Positions 46-62,177 of a stretch of DNA of 64,000 bases are shown piece after piece. The DNA lies in assembly GCA_965197495.1 (NCBI GenBank), contig OZ240210.1:2876671-2940670 (forward strand), written 5' to 3'. The translations under genes and the position numbers were made by a program. This DNA is from Candidatus Marinacidobacterales bacterium. Lineage in GTDB: Bacteria; Acidobacteriota; Vicinamibacteria; Marinacidobacterales; SMYC01. The notes beneath the pieces are model-generated. The model saw only the letters and a list, made by a program, of their open reading frames with translations. It ran no database searches and had not been told where the DNA came from. Every line of letters starts with the position of its first letter. Within the stretch, counting starts at the first letter, position 1.

Positions 46-1412
46 GGATGTGTCCCGAGGTTCGTGGAAAAAGAACGGCGCCCTCCGCTCCGTCATCAGA
101 GCATCATATCAGGCGGCAACCTCCGCGTGTTCGAGAACCTCGCTCAGACGTTGGTAGCCGTCGATGCGTCGTAGTTGAATCTGGCCAGAGGCGATAAGCC
201 CAAACAGCAAAGCGACCGCGGACTCCTCGCTGGAGAACGACGCTTGGGTTTTCGTCCGGCGTCGAAACTCGCGGTTGAGATTCTCCAGAGCATTGGTCGT
301 TCGAATCGATTTCCACATGGCACGAGGGAATTCATAGAAGGTCAGCAGCTGATTACCGGCCTCCTCTAGGCTTCGGACGACGGCCGGCGCGAGAGGCGTC
401 CACTTGGCGACGAGCTCGTCATAGGCTTTGCGAGCATCGATCCCGTTCTTGGCGTAGACGATCCGGTTGTAGTCACGCCGGAGCTCACGGCGTGCGTGCG
501 CCGGGCAATGTTCGAGCAAGTTGGCGCGCTTGTGCTCGGTACATCGCTGCAACCGGCACCCCGGCCACTTCTCCAGCGCTTTCGTCAGCCCCTTGTGGCC
601 GTCGCTGATCACTAGCTTGGGAGCCCGGAGTCCTCGAGCCTGAAGTCCCTCCAGCACGGAGCCCCAATGCGTCGAGGCTTCGCTCACCGCCAGACGCAAT
701 GACAACAGACGTTTCTGCCCGTCTGGCGCGACCCCGAGCGCGACCAGTACGGGTACGCTGATCACACGTTTCGCCATCCGCACTTTCAGGAGGAAGCCGT
801 CCAGGTAAACGATCGCGTAGACCTCCTCGCTGAGAGCACGGTTCTGCCATTCCTCGAAGCGCTCCTTCAGCCGGCTAACCACGCGAGACACCGCGCTCTT
901 CGATAGGTGCTCCTCACCGAGCAGTGGTTTCAGCGCTTTGCGGATCCGGCGGCTATTCGCGCCCGACAAGTACGTCCCCAAGATCGCCTCGTCGACCTCA
1001 CGAGTCCGGCGTGCATACCGGGGCAACAGCTCGCTCCTGAACTCTGTCGTCTCTCCCGTTTCCTCGTCTCGCACGCGGGCTCGTGGTACACGGAGCTCGC
1101 GAGTTCCCACCGACATCGTCACGCGACGGGTTTCGGCTCCGTTGCGATACCCACGGCGGTCTTCCGCACGCTCGTAGCTACGACACCCCAGCGCTTGGTC
1201 GACTTCTTCCTCGAGCACGACCTCGATCGCCTCCAGTACCCGCTTACGCAGCCGAAGTTGGACGAACTCCCGGTACTCGCTTACAGACTCCTTCGATATG
1301 GTGGTAGGCTTCTTCATGGCGTAATCCTCCTCCTCGCCTTTCCAGGCGCGGTTTCGTTTTGTTTAACCGGAGGTTACGCCATTCTTATTTCCACGGGAAG
1401 CGGGACAGATCC
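46..1412 (-). mobile_element. IS256-family insertion sequence with imperfect 26-bp terminal inverted repeats and an 8-bp target-site duplication CAAAAAAG
   Basis: Left IR at 45-70 is GGGATGTGTCCCGAGGTTCGTGGAAA; the right end 1388-1413 reverse-complements to GGGATCTGTCCCGCTTCCCGTGGAAA. CAAAAAAG is found at both 38-45 and 1413-1420. Confidence 0.75.
109..1317 (-). CDS. IS256-family (Mutator-like) transposase, 402 aa
   Basis: The translation has the YLDGFLLKVR, ISDGHKGL, CTEHKRANLL and NALENLNREFRRRTK motifs typical of IS256 transposases, and the ORF spans almost the whole element. Confidence 0.85.
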   Translation of the reverse strand: MKKPTTISKESVSEYREFVQLRLRKRVLEAIEVVLEEEVDQALGCRSYERAEDRRGYRNGAETRRVTMSVGTRELRVPRARVRDEETGETTEFRSELLPRYARRTREVDEAILGTYLSGANSRRIRKALKPLLGEEHLSKSAVSRVVSRLKERFEEWQNRALSEEVYAIVYLDGFLLKVRMAKRVISVPVLVALGVAPDGQKRLLSLRLAVSEASTHWGSVLEGLQARGLRAPKLVISDGHKGLTKALEKWPGCRLQRCTEHKRANLLEHCPAHARRELRRDYNRIVYAKNGIDARKAYDELVAKWTPLAPAVVRSLEEAGNQLLTFYEFPRAMWKSIRTTNALENLNREFRRRTKTQASFSSEESAVALLFGLIASGQIQLRRIDGYQRLSEVLEHAEVAA

Positions 1413-1413
1413 C

Positions 1414-1897
1414 AAAAAAGCTCGACAACCAACTTGCTTACGCGATGAGAGTAGATGAATCGCTGACCTTCACGGAGTATTGGTCGGACCGTAGGTTCAG
1501 AGGGAAGCGTCCCCGGTGGCGCAAAGCAGCCCCAATTGTAGAGAAGTGTGGTGATAACTGCTATGCACCGACTAGCGACGGCGAGTTCCGGCAGCTGCGG
1601 TCCAGGCACTGGGATCACGGTAGAAATCGCGAGAATCGGCGGCAGAAGATGACGGACCTCGGGGGCGAGCGCGTCCTTGTCGGACGTCGGTTCTGTTACT
1701 TCGGGGGCGACGCGATTCCTTTCCCTGCTGACGTCTCCTTCCGACCACCCGCTCGGTTCAACCGTGTCAACTTCACCGACGAGGAGAGGGGCGGGCTGCA
1801 AGAATTTCTCGAGGATCTCCCTCAGGGTATCCAGGGCAAACCGAGGAACTGGCCGAAGGATGACGGGTTCTGGCGGGAAAGTGAGCGATGCGGCTAA
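1414..1897 (+). CDS. C-terminal part of hypothetical 'gene A'; its reading frame stays open upstream across the IS256 insertion point and off the window start, so the gene is split by IS256
   Basis: Removing the IS and one TSD copy gives a frame (KARPGDWIVGITPKKLDNQLAYAMRVDESLTFTEYW...) with no stop from position 1 onward. The ORF-track Met at 1445 is probably internal. Confidence 0.45.
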
Positions 1898-3726: not shown

Positions 3727-5157
3727 CCCCGTCCTGTGCCAAAACTCGGCCCTTTTGAAATAGGCCATAAATCAGCAGCTTAGTGTCTGTGTTTGCGCCG
3801 GGGCCAAGGGCCGTAGGCTTTACAATCGTCTGGCCCGAGGGTGTTATCTTCAGCTCCATGATGACGTACCACGTGCAATTCCTACTGCTCGTTCTAGCTG
3901 GCTGGGTCAACCGCCAGCAGCAGGATGTGATCGACTACCAGCAAGAGGAGAACCGTGTGCTCCGAGCCGGGCTTCGGGGCAAGCGTCTCAGGCTCTCGGA
4001 CGACGAGCGGCGCAGGCTCGCGGTCAAGGCCCAGACTTTGGGCCGCGAGGCGCTGGCCCAGATTGCGTCCGTTGCCACACCCGCTACGCTTCTGCGCTGG
4101 TACCGCCACCTCATCGCAGCCAAGTACGATGGCAGCAAGAACCGGAGTCCAGGCCGACCTCCGACGGCGAAGGACATCCGTGAGCTCATTGTGCGCGTGG
4201 CGCGGGAGAACCCGACGTGGGGATATACGCGCCTGCGAGGCGCACTCAAGAACCTAGGACATGAACTCGGACGCAACACTATCAAGAGGATCCTCGCCGA
4301 GCACGTATCGCTCCTGCGCCGGAGCGGGGCAGGAGCATGTCGTGGAGCACCTTCATCAAGGCTCATTGGGGCGCCATCGCTGCGACAGACCTGTTCACCG
4401 TCGAGGTTGTGAACCCGTTCGGGCTCGTCCGCTACCATGTCCTGTTTGTCATCGATATCGCCACTCGCTGCGTGTGCATCGGTGGGATAACGTCGGACCC
4501 CAACGGGGAGTGGATGGAGCAGGTGGCAAGAAACCTCACTGACATGTGGGATGGTTTCCTCCTTGGCAAGCGATACCTCATCCACGACCGGGACCCGCTA
4601 TTCACCGAGGCGGTACGTGGGCTGTTGAGAGATTCAGGCGTGAAGCCCCTTCGCCTTCCCGCTAATAGTCCGAATCTGAACGCATATGCGGAAAGATTCG
4701 TTCTCTCCATACGTCGAGAGTGTCTCGACCGCTTCGTACCTCTCAGTGAGCGACACCTGCGCACAGCGGTACCGAATACGTAGTGCACTATCACACAGAA
4801 CGGAACCACCAAGGTCTCGGCAACGAGCTCCTCACACCTCTGCCGGCAAGCGCGAATGACGCTGGCCCCATCGTGTCGCGAGAGCGACTTGGGGGCATTC
4901 TCAACTACTACTGCCGTGCCGCGTAGATGGTCGCCGGCGACGGTAGCCCCTCGGCGGGCTCGACCGGCGTAGCGTGGAAACAGCTTCAGGAACACGCTTC
5001 GATATTCGCTCTCGACTAGGAGGTCATCTGCATGGTGACGACCCGCCCGCCCAAGACGATTGTAAAGCCCACGGCCCTTGGCCCGGTCGCAAACACAGAC
5101 ACTAAGTTGCTGATTTATGGCCTATTTCAAAAGGGCCGAGTTTTGGCACAGGACGGG
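3727..5157 (+). mobile_element. IS481-like element copy 1, about 1431 bp with roughly 110-bp near-perfect terminal inverted repeats; the transposase is inactivated by two 1-bp deletions
   Basis: It is co-linear and over 98% identical with the intact copy at 29453-30885. A G is lost near 4300 (gcacgtatcg vs gcacggtatcg) and an A near 4780 (gcggtaccgaat vs gcggtaaccgaat), which splits the ORF into 3783-4412, 4337-4783 and a downstream piece. Confidence 0.85.
3840..4925 (+). pseudogene. IS481-family DDE transposase gene with two frameshifts
   Basis: This is the comparison with the 381-aa ORF at 29509-30654 described above. Confidence 0.8.
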
Positions 5158-6497: not shown

Positions 6498-6705
6498 CAC
6501 GTGACAGAAAGTGACTCACGCCCGGCGCAGCTCGTTCGTAGCGCGCAAGGTGTCCAAGCTCGACATCGTCCAGGCTACGCTCGGGGTTCCGTTGTAGCGA
6601 CGCGGTATCGAGGAGATGGCGAAGCGCTTCGAGATCGGTGCACCCGAGCTCGAGGGCGTGGGCGACGGTCTCACGAAGCTTGTCGTATCCGTGCTTGCGC
6701 CCTCG

Positions 6706-7007
6706 TCCTGTGCCAAAACTCAGCCCTTTTGAAATAGACCATAAATCAGCAGCTTAGCGACTGGGCCAAGGGCCCTTAGGCTCTACAGTTACCCAAAACC
6801 CGCGGTCGACGTTCGAGAGCCGCGGCCGTTTCACCGAACGGCGGAGGACGGCGAGCTGCTGCCGAAGAGCGACATTGTCGAGAGCCAGCTCGCGACGAGC
6901 CTTGAAGACGGAGATGAGAGCGCGAACAAACGACGAAATCAAGCAGGCATGGTGCCGGCAGACTAATCAAGTTTGGGGCGCCCGGATGAATAAATAGAAG
7001 GCACAGG
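6706..7007 (-). mobile_element. 302-bp MITE-like element with termini GTCCTGTGCC...GGCACAGG; its left subterminal 70 bp equals the IS481-like IR, and it carries a 62-codon relic of a transposase N-terminus
   Basis: Near-identical copies lie at 17105-17413 and 18503-18788. The internal ORF reads MISSFVRALISVFKARRELALDNVALRQQLAVLRR, an HTH-type transposase N-terminus. Confidence 0.7.
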
Positions 7008-7018
7008 CGGCAGAGGCG

Positions 7019-8041
7019 ATTCACGCCACTCGTGGCAGTACGCCGCGCCTGAACCAGAACGCGCTGGTGTTTCTTGCGGCCGACAAGGTGCGGCTTCAGG
7101 ATCTCGAGGACGCGATTCGCCGGTATCTGGCGTGGGAATCCATCGTTGAGGACAAGAAGGTCCTGAACCTGGACCAGCAGCAACTCAAGCAGGCCGAAGC
7201 CCAGCAGCAAGCGGCGAACGGTACTGCGACGGCACAACTGCCTGAGACGTATCAGTGGGTCCTCGTGCCCACGCAGCGTACGCCGCAGGAGGCCATGCAG
7301 TGGCAGGTACTGAGGCTCGGAGGTCAGGATCCGTTAGCAGTAAGGGCCTCGAAGAAGCTGCGTGCGGACGAGCTGTTGCTGACGAGTCTCGGGGCCACCG
7401 TGCCCAGAAAGTACCTGGACGACATTCCGCTGTGGCGTGGAAACCACGTTGACGTGCGCCAGCTCACCGAGGATTTCGCTCGCTACCTATATCTTCCGCG
7501 CTTGGCCGATAGCAAAGTACTCGTACGGACTATCGAAGACGGCATCGGATTGCTCACTTGGCAGACCGATACCTTCGGGTTCGCAGAGAGCTTTGACGAG
7601 ACCGATGTCCGGTACCGTGGTCTCCGTGGTGGGCAGGTCCTTAGGCTCGCTGCGGGTGCGTTGGGGATGCTCGTGAGACCAGACGCCGCGCACACACAAT
7701 TGGACGCCGAGGTTCTCCCCAGCAAACCGGAGACTGGCACGAGCCCACCCACGATACCGAGCACCGACAAGTCGCCGGTAGAGCCACTAGGCAAAGCTCC
7801 GGAGCGCCTGACGCGGTTTCATGGAACGGTGCGGCTTGCCCCTGCCCGCATCGGCCGGGATGCCGGCCGGATCGGCGAGGAGCTCATCGCGCATCTCTCG
7901 GGCCTTGTCGATGCAGACGTGCAGGTGACCCTAGAGATTGAGGCGCACATGCCAAATGGCGCGCCTGAGCAGGCCGTTCGGACCGTCACCGAGAACGCGC
8001 GGACACTGAAGTTCATGAGTCAAGGGTTCGAGAAGGAGTAG
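7019..8041 (+). pseudogene. C-terminal about 340 codons of a large DUF499-like (defence-island ATPase family) gene, 5'-truncated by the MITE at 6706-7007
   Basis: The frame is open from the MITE boundary (a stop lies inside the MITE end) and reads ...NQNALVFLAADKVRLQDLEDAIRRYLAWESIVEDKKVLNLDQQQLKQAEAQ...YQWVLVPTQ. The family assignment is from memory of DUF499 C-termini. Confidence 0.5.
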
Positions 8042-17104: not shown

Positions 17105-17413
17105 GTCCTGTGCCAAAACTCAGCCCTTTTGAAATAGACCATAAATCAGCAGCTTAGCGACTGGGCCAAGGGCCCTTAGGCTCTACAGTTACCCAAAACC
17201 CGCGGTCGACATTCGAGAGCCGCGGCCGTTTCACCGAACGGCGGAGGACGGCGAGCTGCTGCCGAAGAGCGACATTGTCGAGAGCCAGCTCGCGACGAGC
17301 CTTGAAGGCGGAGATGAGAGCGTGAACAAACGACGAAATCAAGCAGGCATGGTGCCGGCAGACCGGAGACTAATCAAGTTTGGGGCGCCCGGATGAATAA
17401 ATAGAAGGCACAG
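17105..17413 (-). mobile_element. MITE-like element, copy 2 (309 bp)
   Basis: It is over 97% identical to 6706-7007 and has the same embedded 62-codon ORF (17154-17342). Confidence 0.7.
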
Positions 17414-17469
17414 ACCGATTTGCGCTATCATGAATCAACCCAAGGCCATCGACCCGACACAATTTCCTC

Positions 17470-18189
17470 ATGAGTATGCTGCAGTCTTTTCAATGGTTGA
17501 CGCTTGCTATCACCGCGGTCGGGGTCGTGGGTTGCAGTTCCTCCATGTCCCCATCCTCGACCACGGAACCCGAGTCATCTCCACCGGCCGAGACTGCTGA
17601 ACCCGAGGCGAGAGCCGAGTACACCGTCACTTTCGATGCTTCCTGGAGTAAATCGACCCATCCCGAAGACTTTCCTCCCAACCCACACTTCTCCGGATTG
17701 ATCGGTGGCACGCACAACGACGACATTCGCTTCTGGATGCCCGGAAGGAAGGCGTCGGATGGGATCAAAGCCATGGCCGAAAGGGGTCTTAAAACCCCTC
17801 TCAACGAAGAGATTCGAGCGGCTCGCGACGAGGGAACGGCGGACAGGCTTCTTTCAGGTGATGGCATTCCTCGATCGCCTTCAAGCGTGTCTCTCGATTT
17901 CGCGATCCGGCGCGATTACACTCTGGTGACGTTGGTCTCGATGGTGGCACCGAGCCCCGATTGGTTCACCGGGGTTTCGGCCTTGAGCCTTCTCGAAGGA
18001 GGCCAATGGGTCGAGGAACTAACAGTGGAGCTCTTTGCTTACGACGCAGGCACGGACAGCGGAACGACTTACAACTCCGCCAACGATCCCACCTCACCTC
18101 GCGAGTCGATCCAGCGAATCGACGGACGTCCGCTTGCGGTTGGCGGCCAAGTCGCTCCGGTGGGGACCTTCACCTTTACTAGGCGCTAG
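17470..18189 (+). CDS. Spondin_N-domain lipoprotein
   Basis: It has a lipoprotein signal (LTLAITAVGVVGC) followed by YTVTFDASWSKSTHPEDFPPNPHFSGLIGGTHN, which is characteristic of the bacterial spondin_N domain. Confidence 0.6.
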   Translation: MSMLQSFQWLTLAITAVGVVGCSSSMSPSSTTEPESSPPAETAEPEARAEYTVTFDASWSKSTHPEDFPPNPHFSGLIGGTHNDDIRFWMPGRKASDGIKAMAERGLKTPLNEEIRAARDEGTADRLLSGDGIPRSPSSVSLDFAIRRDYTLVTLVSMVAPSPDWFTGVSALSLLEGGQWVEELTVELFAYDAGTDSGTTYNSANDPTSPRESIQRIDGRPLAVGGQVAPVGTFTFTRR

Positions 18190-18337
18190 GCTCACGCTTG
18201 GTGCGAGCGGGCCAGTCGGCAGGGACCGGTTTCATCGGACGACAAAACGCTGCAATCGTCGTGGTTTTGCTCATACCGACGGCGCAACTCCTCCACCGTT
18301 CGATCGATGTCGTCTCCAGCAACGCAGCAGAGTCCAT

Positions 18338-18400
18338 GCCCGTCGTGTCCAAAAACACAAACGAACTCAAGACCCACGCGCCGGGACGTTTCGGATTAGA
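18338..18400 (+). repeat. Short repeat A copy (cgtcgtgtccaaaaacacaaacgaactcaagacc...cgtttcggat)
   Basis: It is one of at least eight copies; the others are at 5662-5720, 15434-15466 (rc), 24323-24381, 33318-33375, 34010-34140 (rc, long form), 36803-36930 (long form) and 36962-37005. Confidence 0.7.
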
Positions 18401-18502
18401 GGTGTCTAGGCTTGGTTGTGCCTTCTATTTATTCATCCGCCAGCCCCATGGGTCGGAAGTCAGCCCTGCGGCGCGAAATACCCTGGATTCTGCGCGGATT
18501 CA

Positions 18503-18788
18503 TTTGAAATAGACCATAAATCAGCAGCTTAGCGACTGGGCCAAGGGCCCTTAGGCTCTACAGTTACCCAAAAACCCGCGGTCGACGTTCGAGAGCTGCG
18601 GCCGTTTCACCGAACGGCGGAGGACAGCGAGCTGCTGCCGAAGAGCGACATTGTCGAGAGCCAGCTCGCGACGAGCCTTGAAGGCGGAGATGAGAGCGCG
18701 AACAAACGACGAAATCAAGCAGGCATGGTGCCGGCAGACCGGAGACTAATCAAGTTTGGGGCCCGGATGAATAAATAGAAGGTACAGG
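18503..18788 (-). mobile_element. MITE-like element, copy 3, truncated at the left end; it lies next to an inverted fragment of the MITE right end at 18395-18440
   Basis: It aligns with 6728-7007, and ccttctatttattcatccgc at 18421 is the reverse complement of the MITE right end. Confidence 0.6.
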
Positions 18789-19526: not shown

Positions 19527-19616
19527 ACTTACGGCCCTTGGCCCGGCCGCAAACACGGACACTAAGCTGCTGATTTATGGTCTATTTAAGAGGGCCGAGT
19601 TTTGGCACAGGACGGG
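19527..19616 (-). repeat. Solo IS481-like terminal IR (about 90 bp) abutting the stop codon of the CotH gene
   Basis: ggcccttggcccggccgcaaacacggacactaagctgctgatttatggtctatttaagagggccgagttttggcacaggacggg is the IR, and no transposase lies to its left. Confidence 0.7.
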
Positions 19617-19621
19617 CTCGG

Positions 19622-22015
19622 TTAATCTCGTTCCCAAGTCCCGTATTCGTTCAGAGCACTCCATTCGTCGCCCCGCCGTGAACGTCCCTTGAGATTAGGA
19701 GAGAAAGGAACCGTCGAAACGGCTTCGCTGAAACTGTGTGCCGTGGGGTTCCGTGGGTCGCTTCCATCGAGGGTGTAGTAGACCTTTTCCGCTCCCGCCG
19801 GGCGACGGATGGTGATGCTGTCAGAAGCTCGCTCGAACCCCGGCGGGTCGATGGTAGGATAGTAACCATGGTTTCGAAGTGCCCGAATGAACTTTTCGAC
19901 ATTCCCGTCCATCAAGCCTAGAACGTAGTCCCGCGCTCGCTTCCAATGCACATCCCGCGTGCGGGGACGATTCTCCCGTCCAGGGGCTGCGTCGCCCCAC
20001 CGGGCCGACTCACAAAGCATCGCCGGCTCCACATAGTCCGCTAGCCTCCGAAAATTGGTTTGGTTTACATGGTCTGCAAGGGGGCCGCCATCGTAGCAAG
20101 CACGATAGACGTGATCCGCGAACTCCAGCCGGAACTCTGGGCTGTCCGCCAAAGCCATCCATAGTTGGTGTAACGCGGACGTTCCGCCGGACACGAAACT
20201 TGGCGGAACCCAAGCCCCCGCGTGCCCGTATTTATGAGAGTAGAGCCCGTAGGTTATCTCCGCATCCCAGCAGAAATACAGTCCGGCACCAGGAGGGTGA
20301 ATCCGAATCCCTCCGTACCAATTTTGCTTTCCCCAATCTCCCATGCCGGAAAACCAATTCAGCAGGATGTAGTCGCTGAACTGGGCCGTATTCAATAGGG
20401 TTTTCATCTCCTGGTACTTTGCGGGCTCCGAGAGATCATTGTCACGCGCATAACGGTAGACGGTGATATACCAGCGCGGGTGGTTCGGCTTGCCGACTAC
20501 GCCAGAATGGTTGATAGCAAACCAGTCAGCCGAGTCACCACCATAGTACGAAGCGAGAAAACGCCGGTCCGGACGCTCCACCGCGTTGTATACGCCCCAG
20601 TAAATCCCGTTCAGGTAGAGATGCACAAAAATGCCGCGCGCGGCGTTATCGCTCAAAGAAAGCTGCGAGTCCCGAACGTGTTGGTCGCGGACATAGACCG
20701 CCAACTCGCTGATATCGCCTCTTCTCGACCAGTTTTCTTGCCCACCTGCCCGCAGAACGATGGTGTTGAACTCCTTCACTGCAGATTCGGCATGGTGCAC
20801 GGCGCTCTCGAAAAAGGGGTATCTCAACATTCCCGGACCGAAGTCTTTGCTGAAGACTAGGCGGAACGATCGCTTTTCCTCGGGAAACGTCTGACTATGC
20901 GCTCTAATTCCGCAATCGACCTGGAAGCCCTCGAAGTCCGAAAACTTGCTCGGGTAGAGGAGCTCAACCGAGGCGGGACGGGTTGGTGGACCCTTATCAA
21001 TGTAGAGCCCGTAGCTCTCATTAAAGAGGTGGTCCCCATCCATGACGATGGAGAGGGTGGGAATCGATGTCAGTCCTTCCACGAACTCCAGCTGGTTGCT
21101 CGTATTCACAACATCGGGATCGATCTCGATGTCGAGATCTGCGTACGGAGCCATATTGGAGGAGCGAAACGGGGCCGGATAATCGAATGGCAGAGCCGCC
21201 TGCTCCTTCACCGTGGTCGGAAATATATAGGTATGGGTGTCGACGTTCGTGCTCCTCGCACCAGCTTTGTACGCTATGGCCCGAAGGACGGTCGTTTTAG
21301 CCACAAGAACCTTGTTGCCGACGATTCCATGACTCACGCTCGGCTTACTGCCGTCGGTGGTATAGACGATCGTTGCGCCGGGAGTGGCGGTGGTGAGGAT
21401 CACTTCGAAAGGGGTCTCATAGAAGCCGCGGTCGTGGCTGAACTTCGTATCGCCTACTGAGTGCGTCCGGCCGGTTCGGCGATGCCAATCATTGAAGAAC
21501 TCGACCGATTGCCCAACCGGTTGTGCAGGGGCGCTCGCAAGAAGAACCGGCTCTCCCCAAACCGGAACCAGTGACTGCCGATGCACCGCGCCCGAGGCGT
21601 CCAGCACAGGCCGTGCCGTGAAGCTCAGCGAGACCGTTCTCCCCTCCCACGGAGTGAGATCAATCATGCGGTCGTTCCAACGATTCCCCTCCTGTGCAGC
21701 AAGGGTCTCGCGAAACGCGCGGCTCCGCTTGTCATCGACGTCGATCTCGATCAGGAACTCTGTCTCGGGCAGACCGGCACTGGGTGTGCCTAATACGGCC
21801 ATCGAGAATTGGAGCACGGCGTTCTGCGGTACCTTTAGCGGGGACACCCACGTCGAGCCGTCCAACGCTGTTCGGGACTTTCCTTCCAACTCCACTTCCC
21901 TGGAAGGCTGAGAAGGATCGAGAAGGGAAACAGGGCGCGTTCTCGGTAAGTCGCTGCAAGCCGCTGCGGATGCTAGGAGCATCAGGACGACCAGCGTGTC
22001 GGTTCGTCTCCCCAT
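19622..22015 (-). CDS. CotH-family protein (CotH kinase-like fold) with a lipoprotein-type signal peptide and a chitobiase/hexosaminidase-C-like beta domain
   Basis: The likely start is MGRRTDTLVVLMLLASAAACSDL; the ORF-track start at 22417 adds 134 low-quality codons. It contains the CotH motifs VHLYLNGIYWGVYNAVE, FSDYILLNWFSGMGDWGKQNWYGGIRIHPPGAGLYFCWDAE and ATIVYTTDGSKPS. Confidence 0.65.
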   Translation of the reverse strand: MGRRTDTLVVLMLLASAAACSDLPRTRPVSLLDPSQPSREVELEGKSRTALDGSTWVSPLKVPQNAVLQFSMAVLGTPSAGLPETEFLIEIDVDDKRSRAFRETLAAQEGNRWNDRMIDLTPWEGRTVSLSFTARPVLDASGAVHRQSLVPVWGEPVLLASAPAQPVGQSVEFFNDWHRRTGRTHSVGDTKFSHDRGFYETPFEVILTTATPGATIVYTTDGSKPSVSHGIVGNKVLVAKTTVLRAIAYKAGARSTNVDTHTYIFPTTVKEQAALPFDYPAPFRSSNMAPYADLDIEIDPDVVNTSNQLEFVEGLTSIPTLSIVMDGDHLFNESYGLYIDKGPPTRPASVELLYPSKFSDFEGFQVDCGIRAHSQTFPEEKRSFRLVFSKDFGPGMLRYPFFESAVHHAESAVKEFNTIVLRAGGQENWSRRGDISELAVYVRDQHVRDSQLSLSDNAARGIFVHLYLNGIYWGVYNAVERPDRRFLASYYGGDSADWFAINHSGVVGKPNHPRWYITVYRYARDNDLSEPAKYQEMKTLLNTAQFSDYILLNWFSGMGDWGKQNWYGGIRIHPPGAGLYFCWDAEITYGLYSHKYGHAGAWVPPSFVSGGTSALHQLWMALADSPEFRLEFADHVYRACYDGGPLADHVNQTNFRRLADYVEPAMLCESARWGDAAPGRENRPRTRDVHWKRARDYVLGLMDGNVEKFIRALRNHGYYPTIDPPGFERASDSITIRRPAGAEKVYYTLDGSDPRNPTAHSFSEAVSTVPFSPNLKGRSRRGDEWSALNEYGTWERD

Positions 22016-22602
22016 CAAGTGTTGCGAGCTTATCAAACGCGCGTTTCTAAATGCTAGGCCAAGGGCGTGGCAAAGAGCAAAAAAGAGCGGGCTATTTTGC
22101 GAGTTTTGCAAGTCACTCCAAGAGGCCGGCCCTCGGAGGGGTTCCGTCGCATGCGCGGGGGAGATAGACCGGGTGGCGCCGACAGGCGCAAAGAAGCCAT
22201 AGGGGGCGTAACGTCCGACCGTTGTCGACGCCGGACGCGGCCCTGCTTGCTGGCCTCCCAGCTGGCCGGCGTGGACAGCGAGACCGCTGCTGTCGATCAA
22301 GATGTGCAACGGCGTCTTCTGCTTGTCCTGCGCGTACGGGGACCCCGAATCGCCGGCCACAACGTCACCCTCCCAGGGTATTGGTGTCACCTCGTTCGAA
22401 TGGGCGAGGATCTCCACGACCGCCTAGGGGCAGCCCTGGTGTTCAGAACAATAGGCCGGATATTCGAAAACAATCGCAAGAGCGAGCCTCTCCAACATTC
22501 ATAAGACGCCGGTGGCATCGTCAGGTCGACCGGTACGGAAAATCCGACGTGGCAGGTCTAAACCGCGCAATCAACGCTGGATCGACTTTTTGCGGAGCAC
22601 AG

Positions 22603-23582
22603 TTTACTGGGGCGTATATAACGCGGTGGAGCGTCCGGATCGGCGTTTTCTCGCTTCGTACTATGGTGGTGACTCGGCTGACTGGTTTGCTATCAACCAT
22701 TCCGGCGTAGTCGGCAAGTCGAACCACCCGCGCTGGTCTGTCACCATGTACCGTTATGCGCGTAAGCATGACCTCTCGGAGCCCGTAAAGTACCGGGAGA
22801 TGAAAACCCTATTGAATACAGCCCAGTTCAGCGACTACATCCTGCTGAATTGGTTTTCCGGCATGGGGGATTGGGGGCGAAAGAATTGGTACGGAGGGAT
22901 TCGGATTCACCCTCCCGGTGCCGGACTGTATTTCTGCTGGGATTCGGAGATGACCTACGGACTCCTCTATAATAAAGGGCACGCGGGGGCTTGGGTTCCG
23001 CCCGAGTTCGTGTCGGGCGGAACGTCCGTGCTACACCAACTATGGATGGCCTTGGCGGATAGCCCAGAGTTCCGGCTGGAGTTCGCGGATCGCGTCTACC
23101 GCGCCTGCTACAATGGCGGTCCCCTCGCGGACCATGTAAACCAAACCAATTTTCGAAAGCTAGCGGACTACGTGGAAGCGGCGATGTTTTGTGAGTCTGC
23201 CCGCTGGGGCGACGCGGGCCACGGAAGGGAGAATCGTCCCAGCACGCGGGATGTGCATTGGAAGCGGGCGCGGGACTATGTTCTAGATTTGATGGACGGA
23301 AACGTCGAAAGGTTCATTCGAGCACTTCGGGACCATGATTACTATCCCACGCTCGACCCGCCGGTGTTCGAACGAGCTTCTAACAGCATCACTATCCGAC
23401 GCCCGGTGGGAGCGGAAAGGGTCTACTACACCCTTGATGGAAGTGACCCACGAAACTCCACGGCACACAGTTTCAGCGAAGCCGTTTCGACGGTTCCTTT
23501 CTCTCCCAATCTCAAGGGACGTTCAAGGCGTGGCGACGAGTGGAGTGCATTGAACGAATACGAGACTTGGGAACGAGATTAA
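22603..23582 (+). pseudogene. Inverted partial paralog (C-terminal about 326 codons) of the CotH gene; no start codon and the 5' region is unrelated
   Basis: It is about 90% aa-identical to the C-terminal third of 19622-22015 (YWGVYNAVERPDRRFLASYYGG ... NEYETWERD*), and its stop is likewise followed by CCGAGCC plus an IS481-like IR. Confidence 0.7.
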
Positions 23583-23590
23583 CCGAGCCG

Positions 23591-23765
23591 GTCCTGTGCC
23601 AAAACTCGGCCCTTTTGAAATAGACCACAAATCAGCAGCTTAGTGTCTGTGTTTGCGACCGAGCCAAGGGGCGTGGGCCTTACAATCGTCTGGCCAAAGG
23701 GTGTTATCTTCAGATCTATGATGACGTACCACGTGCCATTCCTACTGCTCGTTCTGGCTGGTGAC
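23591..23765 (+). repeat. IS481-like left end (IR plus the first about 25 codons of the transposase), with no body beyond about 23765
   Basis: gtcctgtgccaaaactcggcccttttgaaatagaccacaaatcagcagcttag...ATGATGACGTACCACGTGCCATTCCTACTGCTCGTTCTGGCTGG is followed by unrelated sequence. Confidence 0.65.
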
Positions 23766-24609
23766 CTGACCTGTGCTCCGCAAAAAGTCGATCCGGCGTT
23801 GATTGCGCGTTTTAGACCTGCCATGCTCGGCTGCTTTGTGCCGGTCGACCCGACGACGCCACCTGCGTCTTAGGAACGAGGAGAGGCTCGCTCTTGCAAC
23901 TGTTTTCCAATATCCGGTCTATTGTTCTGGATGTCAATGGCAACCGAAAATTGCACACTTTTGTGGAGGGCTTCCACGCGAAGGTGACGCTCTTGCGGTG
24001 GTTGCGCTTGTCGGTGTTGGGTTGGGCGGAGGGAGCGTAGCGATCGGAGTCCAACCCAACACGCGTCGCAGATTCGCAGGACATGGCTGTCAGGACATGG
24101 CTGTCAGGGCGCGGGTCTCTCGCGACCTTGATCGGACGCGGACCGTATCAGGTTCTGGTGCTCCCGCATCCGGTTGTGCCTTCCATTTATTCATCCGCGC
24201 GCACGGAACTTGATTAGTCTCAGGCTGTGGCCGGGGAAGAACCGCAGGCTATTGTTCTGGCGCCAGGGCTGACCCTAGGCGGTGGTGGAGATCCTCGCCT
24301 ATTCGAACGAGGTGACACCAATGCCGTCCTGTCCAAAAACACAAACGAACTCGAGACTGGCGCGCCGGGCCGTTTCGATCGTCATCGCCCCGTAGCGAGC
24401 CCCAGATCTGGGGCGTGTCGGAGGCGATGTCGGCGATTCGGGTTCCCCGTACGCGCAGGGAAAACACCGTCCAGAAACGGGATGCCATGCTCCCGGGCGA
24501 AGACCCTGGATCTGGGCCTGGGGCAAGATGGAAATCCAGTAGGCCAGGGCCGCACCTGGACCAGAACTGCTAGGCGAGCTACGCTGCGGTATCCCCGGCC
24601 TCGATTCTG

Positions 24610-29452: not shown

Positions 29453-30885
29453 CCCCGTCCTGTGCCAAAACTCGGCCCTTTTGAAATAGGCCATAAATCA
29501 GCAGCTTAGTGTCTGTGTTTGCGACCGGACCAAGGGCCGTAGGCTTTACAATCGTCTGGCCCGAGGGTGTTATCTTCAGCTCCATGATGACGTACCACGT
29601 GCAATTCCTACTGCTCGTTCTAGCTGGCTGGGTCAACCGCCAGCAGCAGGATGTGATCGACTACCAGCAAGAGGAGAACCGTGTGCTCCGAGCCGGGCTT
29701 CGGGGCAAGCGTCTCAGGCTCTCGGACGACGAGCGGCGCAGGCTCGCGGTCAAGGCCCAGGCTTTGGGCCGCGAGGCGCTGGCCCAGATTGCGTCCGTTG
29801 CCACACCCGCTACGCTTCTGCGTTGGTACCGCTGCCTCATCGCAGCCAAGTACGATGGCAGCAAGAACCGGAGTCCAGGCCGACCTCCGACGGCGAAGGA
29901 CATCCGTGAGCTCATTGTGCGCGTGGCGCGGGAGAACCCGACGTGGGGATATACGCGCCTGCGAGGCGCACTCAAGAACCTAGGACATGAACTCGGACGC
30001 AACACTATCAAGAGGATCCTCGCCGAGCACGGTATCGCTCCTGCGCCGGAGCGGGGCAAGAGCATGTCGTGGAGCACCTTCATCAAGGCTCATTGGGGCG
30101 CCATCGCTGCGACAGACCTGTTCACCGTCGAGGTTGTGAACCCGTTCGGGCTCGTCCGCTACCATGTCCTGTTTGTCATCGATATCGCCACTCGCTGCGT
30201 GTGCATCGGTGGGATAACGTCGGACCCCAACGGGGAGTGGATGAAGCAGGTAGCAAGAAACCTCACTGACATGTGGGATGGTTTCCTCCTTGGCAAGCGA
30301 TACCTCATCCACGACCGGGACCCGCTATTCACCGAGGCAGTACGTGGGCTGTTGAGAGATTCAGGCGTGAAGCCCCTTCGCCTTCCCGCTAATAGTCCGA
30401 ACCTGAACGCATATGCGGAAAGATTCGTTCTCTCCATACGTCGAGAGTGTCTCGACCGCTTCGTACCTCTCAGTGAGCGACACCTGCGCACAGCGGTAAC
30501 CGAATACGTAGTGCACTATCACACAGAACGGAACCACCAAGGTCTCGGCAACGAGCTCCTCACACCTCTGCCGGCAAGCGCGAATGACGCTGGCCCCATC
30601 GTGTCGCGAGAGCGACTTGGGGGCATTCTCAACTACTACTACCGTGCCGCGTAGATGGTCGCCGGCGACGGTAGCCCCTCGGCGGGCTCGACCGGCGTAG
30701 CGTGGAACAGCTTCAGGAACATGCTTCGATATTCGCTCTCGACTAGGTGGTCATCTGCATGGTGACGACCCGCCCGCCCAAGACGATTGTAAAGCCCACG
30801 GCCCTTGGCCCGGTCGCAAACACAGACACTAAGTTGCTGATTTATGGCCTATTTCAAAAGGGCCGAGTTTTGGCACAGGACGGGG
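29453..30885 (+). mobile_element. IS481-like element copy 2, intact (1433 bp), with about 110-bp terminal IRs beginning CCCCGTCCTGTGCC
   Basis: It has a complete single transposase ORF, and its IRs are near-perfect inverted copies over about 110 bp (e.g. ...cagcagcttagtgtctgtgtttgcgaccgg / rc of ...ccggtcgcaaacacagacactaagttgctg). Confidence 0.85.
29578..30654 (+). CDS. IS481-family DDE transposase with an integrase core domain
   Basis: It has an HTH N-terminus ([25 protein letters not shown]), a DDE core (LFVIDIATR...IHDRD...FTE) and an rve C-terminus ([17 protein letters not shown]). The start may be 29509 or the MMTYH Met at 29578. Confidence 0.85.
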
Positions 30886-33890: not shown

Positions 33891-34009
33891 TCGCCCTCCC
33901 TTACCCCTCGCCCGCTCTTCCGAGCGCCTGTCTTCGAGTTCTGCTCGCGAGGTCTGCCATCCGTAAGAAAGAAGATTGCGTAACGCTGGATCGACTTTTT
34001 GCGGAGCAC

Positions 34010-34140
34010 AGCTGGATCGGCGTCCTCATGACCGAGGATTCTAGCTTCCATTGGCCAACCAAGCGTATACACGTCTATTCCGAAACAGCCCGGCGAGCCG
34101 CTCTTGAGTTCGTTTGTATTTTTGGACACGACGGGCCACC
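34010..34140 (-). repeat. Repeat A long form (about 130 bp), inverted relative to the copy at 36803-36930
   Basis: The reverse complement reads ccgtcgtgtccaaaaatacaaacgaactcaagagcggctcgccgggctgtttcggaatagacgtgtatacgcttggttggccaatggaagctagaatcctcggtcatgaggacgccgatccagc, which is about 88% identical to 36803-36930. Confidence 0.7.
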
Positions 34141-37730: not shown

Positions 37731-37880
37731 CGCGGATGAATAAATAGAAGGCACAGGTCATCTGCATGGTGACGACCCGCCCGCCCAAGACGATTGTAAA
37801 GCCCACAGCCCTTGGCCCGGTCGCAAACACAGACACGAAGTTGCTGATTTATGGCCTATTTCAAAAAAGGCCGAGTTTTG
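37731..37880 (+). repeat. MITE right-end motif (gcggatgaataaatagaaggcacagg) fused to an IS481-like right IR whose last about 7 bp are replaced by the IS5 insertion
   Basis: The sequence tcatctgcatggtgacgacccgcccgcccaagacgattgtaaagcccac...ggccgagttttggc stops 7 bp short of the IR end, exactly where the IS5 IR begins. Confidence 0.6.
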
Positions 37881-38969
37881 GCGGCGTTGTTGCACCGCTC
37901 TGGCTGAGAGCGAAATCCGCCTATGGTGGTGGCCGAGGTATGTTCGAGCATGAAGTATCCCAAGCGCTGCCAGTACAAGCACGCGAAGCAGAAGAAGTAC
38001 CACGTTCGCAACTGGGCGGAATACAACGAAGGGCTGCGCCGCCGGGGCGATTTGACAGTCTGGTTTGACGAGGAGGCAATCGCGAACTGGAAGGCCGACA
38101 AGACCGGTGAGCCTGGCGGTCAACGGGTCTATTCAGACATGGCGATTGAAACGGGCCTGGTTGTCCGGATGGTGTACAAGCTCGCCTACCGACAAACCGA
38201 AGGCTTCTTGCACTCGATCGCCTCGCTTCTCGGGCTCGGTATCGAGATCCCGGACTACTCGACGTTGTGTCGGCGCTCGAGGTTGCTCCGCAAGAAGCTG
38301 CGGATTCTGAAAGCCGCGAGCACTCAACCCATCCACCTGATGATCGATAGCACGGGCTTGAGGATTCATGTTGGAAACGCTCGCAAACCGCCAAAGCAGC
38401 GCGCATGGCGCAAGTTGCACATCGCCGTTGATCGCGAGACCGGCAACATTGTTGCGTCCGAACTGACGGCGTCACGAGCTCGCGACGCAACCCGAGTCCC
38501 CGCTTTGCTAACACAGATTCAAGCACCTCTAGTGTCGGTGGCGGCGGACAGTGCATACGACAAGGAAGCGGTCTACGAAGCCATCGAAGCGCACAGTCCT
38601 GGACGAAAGACGCGCGTGGTGATTCCGCCGCAACGAAACGCGACGCTCAGTCAGAATTCGAACACCGCCATGCAGGAGCGCGATCGCCATATTCGCGCAA
38701 TCGAAAGACACGGCCGACGTGAATGGTACAAGCTCTCAGGCTACACCAAGCGAAGCATGGTGGAGAACGCGGTCTATCGTTACAAGGCGATCATCGGGCC
38801 GGAGATGCGGGCTCGAACGTTGGCGAGGCAACGAGTTGAACACCGAATTGGGTGCGAGATACTCAACAAGATGGCTGCGCTCGGGATGCCCGATACGTAC
38901 TGCGCCGGGTGACTCTGCAACCGGCACAGGGAGGTCAGCGATTTGCTCCGGGCCGTGCAACAACGCCGC
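37881..38969 (+). mobile_element. IS5-family insertion sequence (about 1.09 kb) with 15-bp IRs GCGGCGTTGTTGCAC, inserted into the IS481-like IR relic
   Basis: The left IR at 37881-37895 matches the right IR at 38955-38969 (gtgcaacaacgccgc), and the element contains a single 329-aa transposase ORF. Confidence 0.7.
37923..38912 (+). CDS. IS5-family (IS903-group-like) DDE transposase
   Basis: It has KKYHVRNWAEYNEGLRRRGDLTVWF, LMIDSTGLRIH and VAADSAYDKEAVYEAI ... RSMVENAVYRYKAIIG. Confidence 0.8.
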   Translation: MVVAEVCSSMKYPKRCQYKHAKQKKYHVRNWAEYNEGLRRRGDLTVWFDEEAIANWKADKTGEPGGQRVYSDMAIETGLVVRMVYKLAYRQTEGFLHSIASLLGLGIEIPDYSTLCRRSRLLRKKLRILKAASTQPIHLMIDSTGLRIHVGNARKPPKQRAWRKLHIAVDRETGNIVASELTASRARDATRVPALLTQIQAPLVSVAADSAYDKEAVYEAIEAHSPGRKTRVVIPPQRNATLSQNSNTAMQERDRHIRAIERHGRREWYKLSGYTKRSMVENAVYRYKAIIGPEMRARTLARQRVEHRIGCEILNKMAALGMPDTYCAG

Positions 38970-61092: not shown

Positions 61093-62177
61093 TCATGCGG
61101 CTTCCCGATGGTAGAAACGGAGCAACCCGCCAAGCCGTTCACGGCACTGAATGGCGCCCTCTAGACCGTTAGTCTGAGCGATCGCGGACTCGGGGAACAA
61201 TAAGAGATTGTCCTTGCCTTGATGATTCCTCTCGTGGTGATAATGGGTGACGTACTCCTTCAGCGCGTGACGCAGCGAGTTCTCCCCGAACAAGATGAGC
61301 TTCGAGAGACATTCCTCTTTGACCGATCTCACCCAGCGCTCCGCGAACGCATTCAAATCCGGGCTCCGCGCGGGCAGCCTGATAGGCGTCACGCCAACGC
61401 CCTCAATGGTGTCCCGGAACGACTCGCAGAACTTGGAGTCCCGGTCGTGGATGAGATATCGGCTCGAGGAGAGAAAACCGATATCGGCCATGGTCACGTT
61501 GCGGGCCACTTGAATCATCCACGGTTCGTTCGGATGCGGCGTGATGCCGGCGATGTGGACGCGCCGGGTCGCGAGGTGCATGAAGAACAGAACGTAGTAC
61601 GTCACCAGCCCACCCTGAGTCCACACCTCCGCGGTGAAGAAGTCCGTCGCTGCAAGGACGTCCATATGCGAGCGGATGAACTCCGTCCAGGTGGTGGCCT
61701 TCTTTCGCTCAGGGGCAGGCGGTATGCCGTGACGTCTCAGAATGTTGCCGACGGTTTGGTCACTCACCTCATGCCCGAGCTTGGCTAACGCCCCGGCAAT
61801 CCGGTCGTAACCCCAGGACTTGTTCTCCTGGGCAAGACGCACCACCAACTCTTCGATGTCAGCGTCGACACGCGGCCGCCCTGGGTATTGACGGTTCTTA
61901 GAGCCGTCGAACTTCTTCGCCACAAGCCTCCGGTGCCAGCCCAGGAGCGTCTCGGGCTTCACAATATTCGCTACCACTTCGAGCGCCCGCTTGCCGAGAC
62001 GCTTTCCGATTTCAGCCAGTGTCCGCCGTTCGCCATCGGTCAAGCGCAAGCGACCCTTGATCTGATCCGAAGAATCCGATTCTCGACCACAAGATATTCG
62101 TTCCGCAGGAGAAGCTCCTCGTCCACGGATCCTGAGATATAGGCCAGCATGGTCTTCCAGTCCATCGCGACTCCTTC
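61093..62177 (-). pseudogene. IS481-family transposase, lineage 3 (about 60% identity to the 29578 copy), with a frameshift near 62040-62050
   Basis: The N-terminal 46 codons ([33 protein letters not shown]) at 62177-62040 continue as ...[19 protein letters not shown] in another frame. The rest has an intact DDE/rve signature (IHDRDSKF...YHHERNHQG). Element ends are at about 61085 and about 62400. Confidence 0.7.

Follow-up and report, generated by a model that had tools for sequence, protein, structure and literature searches.

Contained within the window, by which is meant the entire stretch of 64,000 nucleotides that was analyzed, are three copies of a repeated element of ~306 bp, each of which lies on the minus strand (Table 1). 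The copies measure 284-308 bp, with the lower value being that of copy 3, which is truncated. A BLAST search of the window using positions 17105-17415 as the query yielded matches at 6705-7006 (96.8% identity over 309 nt, with one 7-nt deletion) and at 18503-18787 (97.2% identity over 287 nt, with the first 23 nt absent). In a previous interpretation of this DNA, referred to here as the sequence-only reading, the copies were said to be more than 97% identical, a figure that is slightly too high. An alignment of the three copies together with 40 nt of flanking sequence, prepared with MAFFT, reveals that the homology does not extend beyond the element ends into the flanks, which are unrelated. 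The copies are therefore not segmental or tandem duplicates with identical extended flanks, an explanation that had been raised in the sequence-only reading, and its proposal of three independently placed copies of a small, non-autonomous family holds.

As can be seen in Table 1, other insertion sequences have ends that contain the first 53-59 nt of the element. Near the copies, only one of the insertion sequences in the window, designated IS-A, has an intact transposase of this group. A gene for a protein containing a Spondin_N domain is situated between copies 2 and 3. Positioned against the edge of copy 1 is a frame that is open from that edge and has no start of its own, and thus copy 1 adjoins a 5'-truncated gene; a 324-residue part of this frame showed no Pfam match. 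No Rfam matches were observed in or near the copies. Scans for promoters and terminators revealed nothing relevant, and nothing resembling a promoter was seen within the copies or close to them.

Table 1. Positions of the small elements and of neighboring features in the window
Feature	Position	Strand	Remarks
Copy 1, ~306-bp element	6705..7005	-	7-nt internal deletion; parent right-end tip (GTCC...) at 6705, parent left-end tip (GGCACA, plus strand) at 7000-7005
Copy 2	17105..17412	-	complete; IS-B nt 1-222 + 1266-1295 + 1301-1359
Copy 3	18503..18786	-	without the last 23 nt of the parent right end; tip GGTACA
Relic ORF of copy 1	6754-6942	-	open
Relic ORF of copy 2	17154..17342	-	TTG start, 62 codons
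Relic ORF of copy 3	18551-18718	-	1-nt insertion, frameshift after residue 48
Sibling piece	18417..18501	+	first 85 nt of a 146-bp-class sibling (TGTGCCTTCTATTTATTCATCCGCCAGCCCC...GCGCGGATTC), head-to-head with copy 3
Solo IS-B-type left end	24175..24227	+	includes ~30 nt of 5' leader; 87% identity with the element
Solo IS-B-type left-end tip	37734..37755	-	22 nt
Right-end piece of IS-A/IS-B	37757-37882		last ~126 nt
IS-A	29457..30881	+	1,425 bp; ~117-nt terminal inverted repeats; 381-aa intact rve transposase at 29509-30654
IS-A, second copy	3731-5154		frameshifted
Third rve-type transposase	61093-62049	-	318 aa; 34% identity with that of IS-B
First 53-59 nt of the element at other IS ends	3731, 5154(-), 12160, 19613(-), 23591, 29457, 30881(-), 37882(-)		
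Open frame beside copy 1	7007-8041	+	
Spondin_N gene	17470-18189		Pfam, 9e-48
IS256-family element	46-1415		402-aa Mutator-type transposase; 8-bp direct repeat CAAAAAAG
IS5-family element	37883-38968		1,086 bp; 329-aa DDE_Tnp_1 transposase
~95-bp small element	22573-22602, 33982-34011		ends CTGTGCTCCGCAAAAAG...CTTTTTTGCGGATCACAG
Ends (CCC)GTCGTGTCCAAAAACAC	5663, 15463(-), 18342, 24326, 33321, 34132(-), 36963		
Inverted duplication	19585-20604 and 22603-23619		~1 kb, 89-92% identity
CotH/Fn3-associated ORFs	19622-22417; 22512-23582		931 aa; 356 aa

The parent element and its deletion derivatives

The full-length, autonomous parent envisaged in the sequence-only reading was found in related genomes and is designated IS-B. 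It is 1,359 bp in length (L055:6010-7368, from a related Candidatus Marinacidobacterales (Acidobacteriota) genome), starts with TGTGCCTTCTATTTATTCATCC, finishes with ...GAGTTTTGGCACAGGAC, and encodes a single transposase of 339 residues, the N-terminus of which reads MISSLVPALVSAFKARRKLALENVALRQQLAVLRR.... Intact IS-B reading frames are also present in L081 and L071, and full IS-B copies occur in multiple copies. According to Pfam, the transposase contains an rve_3 domain at residues 243-308 (4e-13), and, more weakly, an HTH_32 domain at residues 74-140 (5.7e-5), the 24 bits of the latter lying under the 33.7-bit cut-off. When the IS-B transposase was compared to the window with tblastn, the only matches were to residues 1-51, in the three copies, and to two other rve transposases (31-34% identity). 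A matching transposase is thus absent from the window, as had been stated. A two-ORF, IS3-like parent with a programmed frameshift, hinted at by L001 (a near-full element with the same left end that is frameshifted) and by two matches of 104 residues, was considered and rejected, as the elements in L055 and L081 are intact and have a single ORF. A sister lineage of IS-B, with an intact open frame of ~350 codons and an N-terminus of MIWLLLRSLVSTFKTRRSLALENLALRQQ..., is found in L004 and L045 (OZ253507.1), and truncated relatives of that lineage occur among the database matches (P0102, P0116, and P0163).

The top two NCBIfam models for the IS-A/IS-B group are IS481 and IS3, with the IS3 model scoring 59-81 bits. 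IS481 is the best NCBIfam match for the IS-A transposase (100.1 bits). The C-terminal half of the IS-B transposase, which was the fragment scanned, scored 52.9 bits with the IS481 model and slightly higher with that for IS3. Both the IS-A transposase and this IS-B fragment are far below the cut-off of 224 bits for the IS481 model, NF033577. Members of the IS481 family are characterized by TGT...ACA termini, a single rve DDE transposase, and target-site duplications of 2-15 bp, mostly 6 bp (PMC10045372). IS-B is similar in that it has one ORF with an HTH region followed by the rve core, a left end beginning with TGTG, and a length of ~1.36 kb. It differs, however, in the GGACG that is conserved after the right-end GGCACA, in its strongly asymmetric ends, and in its lack of a target-site duplication; no duplication of 2-15 bp was seen around full-length IS-A, full-length IS-B, or the derivatives. 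Since it falls short on both the curated score and the duplication, IS-B is referred to as IS481-like rather than as a member of the family.

The 3' ~165 nt of IS-A match the IS-B right end, as found in the element, almost perfectly, and IS-A has this right-end module at both of its ends, where it forms the ~117-nt inverted repeats. In the sequence-only reading the same stretch was viewed as an IS481-like left end. That it is shared with other insertion sequence ends was correct, but it is, in fact, the right end of IS-B itself, common to IS-A. The IS-A transposase displays rve_3 and HTH_21 matches above the Pfam cut-offs, with HTH_32 just below, and is only 31% identical to that of IS-B. From the sequences, IS-B has the look of a hybrid in which its own left end and gene are joined to an IS-A-type right-end module. 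The sharing of this module in spite of the 31% identity suggests a modular exchange of ends between the two insertion sequences. The notion that the small element itself is a chimera of an IS-A end and a foreign end was dropped because full-length IS-B has the same right end.

A BLAST comparison of the consensus for the 306-bp class with IS-B aligned it to nt 1-222 (92.8% identity), 1266-1295, and 1301-1359 of the latter, such that ~1,040 bp have been lost internally, plus a further 12 nt. What remains of the parent is, on one side, its left end (TGTGCCTTCTATTTATTCATCC) together with the 5' leader and 53 codons from the start of the transposase gene and, on the other, ~95 nt of the right end (...GAGTTTTGGCACAGGAC). 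The consensus sequences of two shorter classes likewise aligned to IS-B by BLAST, the ~177-bp class to nt 1-95 and 1277-1359 and the ~91-bp class to nt 1-38 and 1307-1359. The ~146-bp class consists of nt 1-23 and 1307-1359 together with 70 nt of unknown origin.

Species-representative genomes were scanned with a 20-mer from the left end, TGCCTTCTATTTATTCATCC. More than 105 stretches contained matches, all of them in genomes of Candidatus Marinacidobacterales (Acidobacteriota, Vicinamibacteria). Drawn from the sampled loci (L002-L108) and the window were 66 non-redundant small elements having the same two ends and unique flanks, and these fall into the ~91, ~146, ~177, and ~306-bp classes. The 306-bp class is represented by 16 copies, three of them in the window, spread over at least eight assemblies and on average 96.4% identical in pairwise comparisons. 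Within this class, three copies are 100% identical, two located ~90 kb apart in OZ250169.1 and the other in a different genome; copy 2 of the window is 99.4% identical to them. Such identity between copies that occupy different sites in related genomes fits the recent movement proposed in the sequence-only reading. The loci of the family cluster in genome islands.

The reading frame carried by the 306-bp class corresponds to residues 1-53 of the IS-B transposase, and codons 1-51 of the copy 2 frame match the N-terminus of that protein at 88%. The frame was rightly recognized as a relic of a transposase N-terminus, but it is not the HTH-containing part, as had been suggested. Residues 1-53 lie upstream of the HTH region at 74-140 and contribute nothing to that domain. 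Its reported occurrence in every copy also requires some qualification; it is present in all three on the minus strand, but is frameshifted in copy 3 and starts with TTG rather than ATG. The ATG of the parent has, indeed, been replaced by TTG in the consensus for the class. Among the 16 copies the substitutions in the frame number 30, 19, and 22 at codon positions 1, 2, and 3, respectively, and the codon differences from the consensus include 14 that are synonymous and 56 that are non-synonymous. Substitutions are about as dense in the frame (71 in 186 nt) as in the 5' leader (23 in 70 nt). On the basis of the TTG start, the even spread over codon positions, the 14 versus 56 differences, and the leader-like density, the 62-codon ORF is a dead relic without coding constraint. 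No domain was found in it by Pfam, and the shorter classes retain no more than nine of its codons.

The relic peptide has 201 homologues in a collection of 5.8 billion proteins and 3,685 among 50%-identity representatives. Almost all of these homologues are 48-240 residues in length, are without a Pfam domain, and differ at their C-termini; several extend further into a recognizable transposase N-terminal region (...DRGFWVLLRRIWTDWESVLVIVKPETVIRWHR...). This spread is the expected appearance of many differently truncated copies of one insertion sequence. The ORF would be a by-product of where the deletion fell, with no function of its own.

Isolated fragments at three positions were previously taken as right ends. 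The fragments are real (18417-18439 and 24175-24227, both inverted, and 37733-37756, as located by BLAST), but they are IS-B-type left ends of sibling elements, one of which is fused to copy 3. At the position of the fusion, the same 146-bp sibling is complete in five other contigs, where it likewise lies downstream of the same gene. The window lacks 59 nt from the end of the sibling and 23 nt from the start of copy 3, a head-to-head loss of the kind that would be expected from deletion of the center of a long palindrome. The 22-nt solo tip adjoins the right-end piece of IS-A/IS-B listed in Table 1, which is cut by the IS5-like element. This IS5-family element is inserted 7 nt from the IS-A/IS-B right-end tip, and at least 14 copies of it, with 95-99% identity, are present in related genomes.

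Flanking sequences and junctions

The left end of IS-B and of the small elements begins with TGTGCC, and the right-end GGCACA is always followed by GGAC, with an additional G in 65 of the 66 members. Counted leftward from TGTGCC, the ORF-proximal end, the flanks of the 66 copies contain C (42), T (13), or G (11) at position -1, G or C at -2 (63), and G at -3 (37). Given that the base next to TGTGCC varies, the terminal inverted repeat conserved throughout the family, and likewise in IS-B, is 6 bp (TGTGCC/GGCACA) and not the 8 bp reported earlier, which in copy 1 includes the variable flanking base. After GGAC, the flanks display G at +1 (65), G at +2 (48), G at +3 (57), G or A at +4 (62), T at +5 (51), and C at +6 (34). 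The consensus is therefore G-S-C before the TGTGCC of the left end and G-G-G-R-T-C after GGAC. IS-A-type left ends show the mirror-image flank, namely RAYCCC before GTCC.

Target-site duplications were searched for in each copy as k-mers of 2-8 nt shared by the left and right flanks within 40 nt. The tips were placed, in turn, at TGTGCC/GGCACA, at GGAC, at GGACG, or at +6 nt. Across the 66 copies such k-mers were no commoner than in shuffled pairings, and the check for duplications was thus negative for the family as a whole. Duplications were likewise not seen around the youngest, near-identical copies and around full-length copies of IS-A and IS-B. Inverted complementarity between the flanks of the family copies was also negative against shuffled controls. 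Copies of an IS256-family element in the same loci served as a control, and three of four are bordered by 8-bp duplications. The lack of duplications around the small elements is not a matter of general scrambling, as those three IS256 duplications are clean. In L002 and L032, the right end of a small family element is immediately followed by the 3' part of the IS256 element.

Wherever the interrupted sequence can be recognized, just one of the two flanks is collinear with it. The sequences interrupted in this one-sided manner include an IS256 gene, the 3' region of IS-A/IS-B, an IS-C-type element, another copy of the family, the Spondin_N cassette, and the interior of IS-A. A simple cut-and-paste or copy-and-paste insertion is, consequently, not demonstrated. 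From a comparison of occupied with unoccupied paralogues, right ends terminate in ...GGACG and IS-A-type left ends start with CGTCC.... An unoccupied palindromic target of the form CCGTCC...GGACGG was not found. When both flanks of 158 elements were used to look for empty sites in all of the retrieved DNA, only one case emerged, an ambiguous one, in which a tandem pair in L060 may be bordered by a duplication of GGG(G). References for an empty site on one flank are provided by L109-type contigs for the Spondin_N side of copy 2 and by the interior of IS-A for the Spondin_N cassette; for right ends they come from IS256, an IS-C-type element, and the 3' region of IS-A. Some flanks are shared in part, with one being the same and the other not, as in L111 versus L117 and L113 versus L114/L115. 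Errors of assembly are an unlikely source of these junctions, since identical ones recur in independent assemblies (the window and L112, L114 and L115, L024 and L048). Possible causes are an end-by-end joining that is free of duplication, frequent intramolecular events, or a later exchange of flanks between the numerous shared end modules.

The Spondin_N unit and other nearby repeats

The Spondin_N protein encoded between copies 2 and 3 is found with an identical sequence on 16 contigs that have different neighbors. The shared unit, GTCCTGTGCC...GGCACAGGAC, is 1,313 bp in length (positions 2786-4098 of L109) and contains no transposase. Its order is an IS-A-type left tip (GTCCTGTGCCAAAACTCG), an unrelated small element of ~95 bp, the gene, an IS-C-type fragment, and a complete 146-bp sibling ending in ...GGCACAGGAC. 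In L109, L111, L117, and L113-115 the unit occurs between different flanks with at least 99.0% identity, and no duplication flanking it was seen in these occurrences. In the window (17415-18501), copy 2 replaces the first ~167 nt of the unit and copy 3 its last 59 nt.

Judged by its composition, the unit looks like a transposase-less mobile cassette that carries a cargo gene. MIC231 of Bacillus cereus, reportedly moved in trans by IS231A, is an example of a mobile insertion cassette. Like such cassettes, the Spondin_N unit lacks a transposase, contains a passenger gene, and is delimited by ends of the insertion sequence type, the left being an IS-A-type tip and the right the shared one; it occurs in several different contexts at 99.0% identity or more. 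It differs from them in that its left end is an inverted repeat of just ~22 nt followed by another small element, and in that no target-site duplication was seen.

Three further repeats deserve description. The ~95-bp small element is also present in L022 (~4955-5055) and L109 (~2810-2900), often beside members of the IS-B-derived family. A repeat family with (CCC)GTCGTGTCCAAAAACAC ends, which resemble the IS-A tip CCCGTCCTGTGCCAAAAC, shows eight matches versus 0.12 expected by chance. Finally, the inverted duplication of ~1 kb comprises the 3' part of a CotH/Fn3-associated gene, and each of its arms adjoins an outward-pointing IS-A-type end.

Origin and spread of the family

Taken together, the repeats very probably represent a non-autonomous element, or MITE if the term is used broadly, that arose by an internal deletion of ~1,040 bp from the 1,359-bp, IS481-like IS-B. 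Bacterial MITEs are derived from complete insertion sequences, are without ORFs, depend on the transposase of the parent in trans, and "sometimes" have direct repeats (PMC3852290). The element is like those MITEs that arise by internal deletion in its size of ~300 bp, its lack of a transposase gene, its possession of both ends of an autonomous insertion sequence (IS-B), its occurrence in many unrelated contexts, and the several independent deletion classes of the one parent. It differs in carrying an in-frame, 53-codon piece of the transposase gene, in having ends that share only 6 bp, and in the absence of direct repeats throughout the family. Because both ends are retained, the full-length IS-B transposase, with its HTH and rve DDE regions, could move the element if supplied in trans. 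We infer such mobilization from the retained ends and from the 100% identical copies at different sites. Since the two ends share only 6 bp, it is from the parent that we assume their recognition by a single transposase. With the parent absent from the window, the copies in this genome may or may not still be mobile.

It is conceivable that the copies are moved by the resident IS-A transposase rather than by that of IS-B. IS-A has the sole intact transposase of the group near the copies, its ends match the first 53-85 nt of the element at 91-98%, and it bears at both ends the 3' module that it shares with IS-B. The two transposases are so divergent, however, and the other end of the element has so little in common with the IS-A ends (TGTGCC only), that this explanation is unlikely. 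Moreover, all of the size classes retain the left end specific to IS-B, and the full IS-B with that end is itself multi-copy. Somewhat less probable still is that the copies spread not by transposition of their own but by recombination or by rearrangement of a repeat-rich island, whether through duplicated segments, ectopic exchange between the shared end modules, or adjacent deletions. The absence of target-site duplications, the one-sided junctions, the elements with one flank in common, the clustering in genome islands, and the inverted duplication beside IS-A-type ends would all be in keeping with such a history. Yet in 66 copies, each between unique flanks, the homology extends precisely to the tips and no further, and the same deletion junction is found in 16 copies over at least eight assemblies. 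The strong bias in the flanks at the tips (T at +5 in 51 of 66) also points to an end-directed, enzymatic joining.

The least probable of the alternatives, and one to which very little weight is given, is that the 62-codon ORF encodes a functional small protein, for example a transposition inhibitor such as InsA of IS1 or the inhibitor of Tn5. In copies 1 and 2 the ORF is uninterrupted, gene callers predicted it in many assemblies, and the segment ELALENVALRQQLAVL has the appearance of a helix that could mediate multimerization. Set against this are the even spread of substitutions over codon positions, the preponderance of non-synonymous differences, the decay of the start from ATG to TTG, and the lack of a Pfam domain. 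In addition, the end of the ORF varies by copy and class; it is frameshifted in copy 3, and most or all of it has been lost from the 177, 146, and 91-bp classes. As MITEs, the repeats are routine.

What the analysis adds is an uncharacterized, IS481-like element, along with the derivatives formed from it by deletion, in the uncultured acidobacterial order Candidatus Marinacidobacterales, on which a literature search found no papers. Hundreds of short "hypothetical proteins" (50-110 residues) in public assemblies are explained as relic ORFs rather than genes, and the parent and consensus sequences can now be used for masking these repeats. The sole potential surprise for specialists lies in the junctions across the IS-A/IS-B group, which are free of duplications, biased toward half-sites, and one-sided. 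A tentative and rather improbable reading of them is that IS-A, IS-B, the four classes of mini-elements, and the Spondin_N cassette share a mode of integration undescribed for IS481-type DDE elements, in which each end is joined independently beside a short half-site without a target-site duplication. The half-sites would be ...RAYCC / CGTCC-TGTGCC at IS-A-type left ends and ...GGCACA-GGACG / GGRTY at right ends. Were this so, each new junction would be accompanied by a deletion, an inversion, or a swapping of flanks, and such behavior alone would build scrambled repeat islands like those observed in this DNA. The missing duplications and the end-specific motifs in the flanks may be a property of the transposase rather than the outcome of later rearrangement. 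For an rve-type DDE element, such a property would be mechanistically odd and would go some way toward explaining how these 8-10-Mb genomes build repeat islands.
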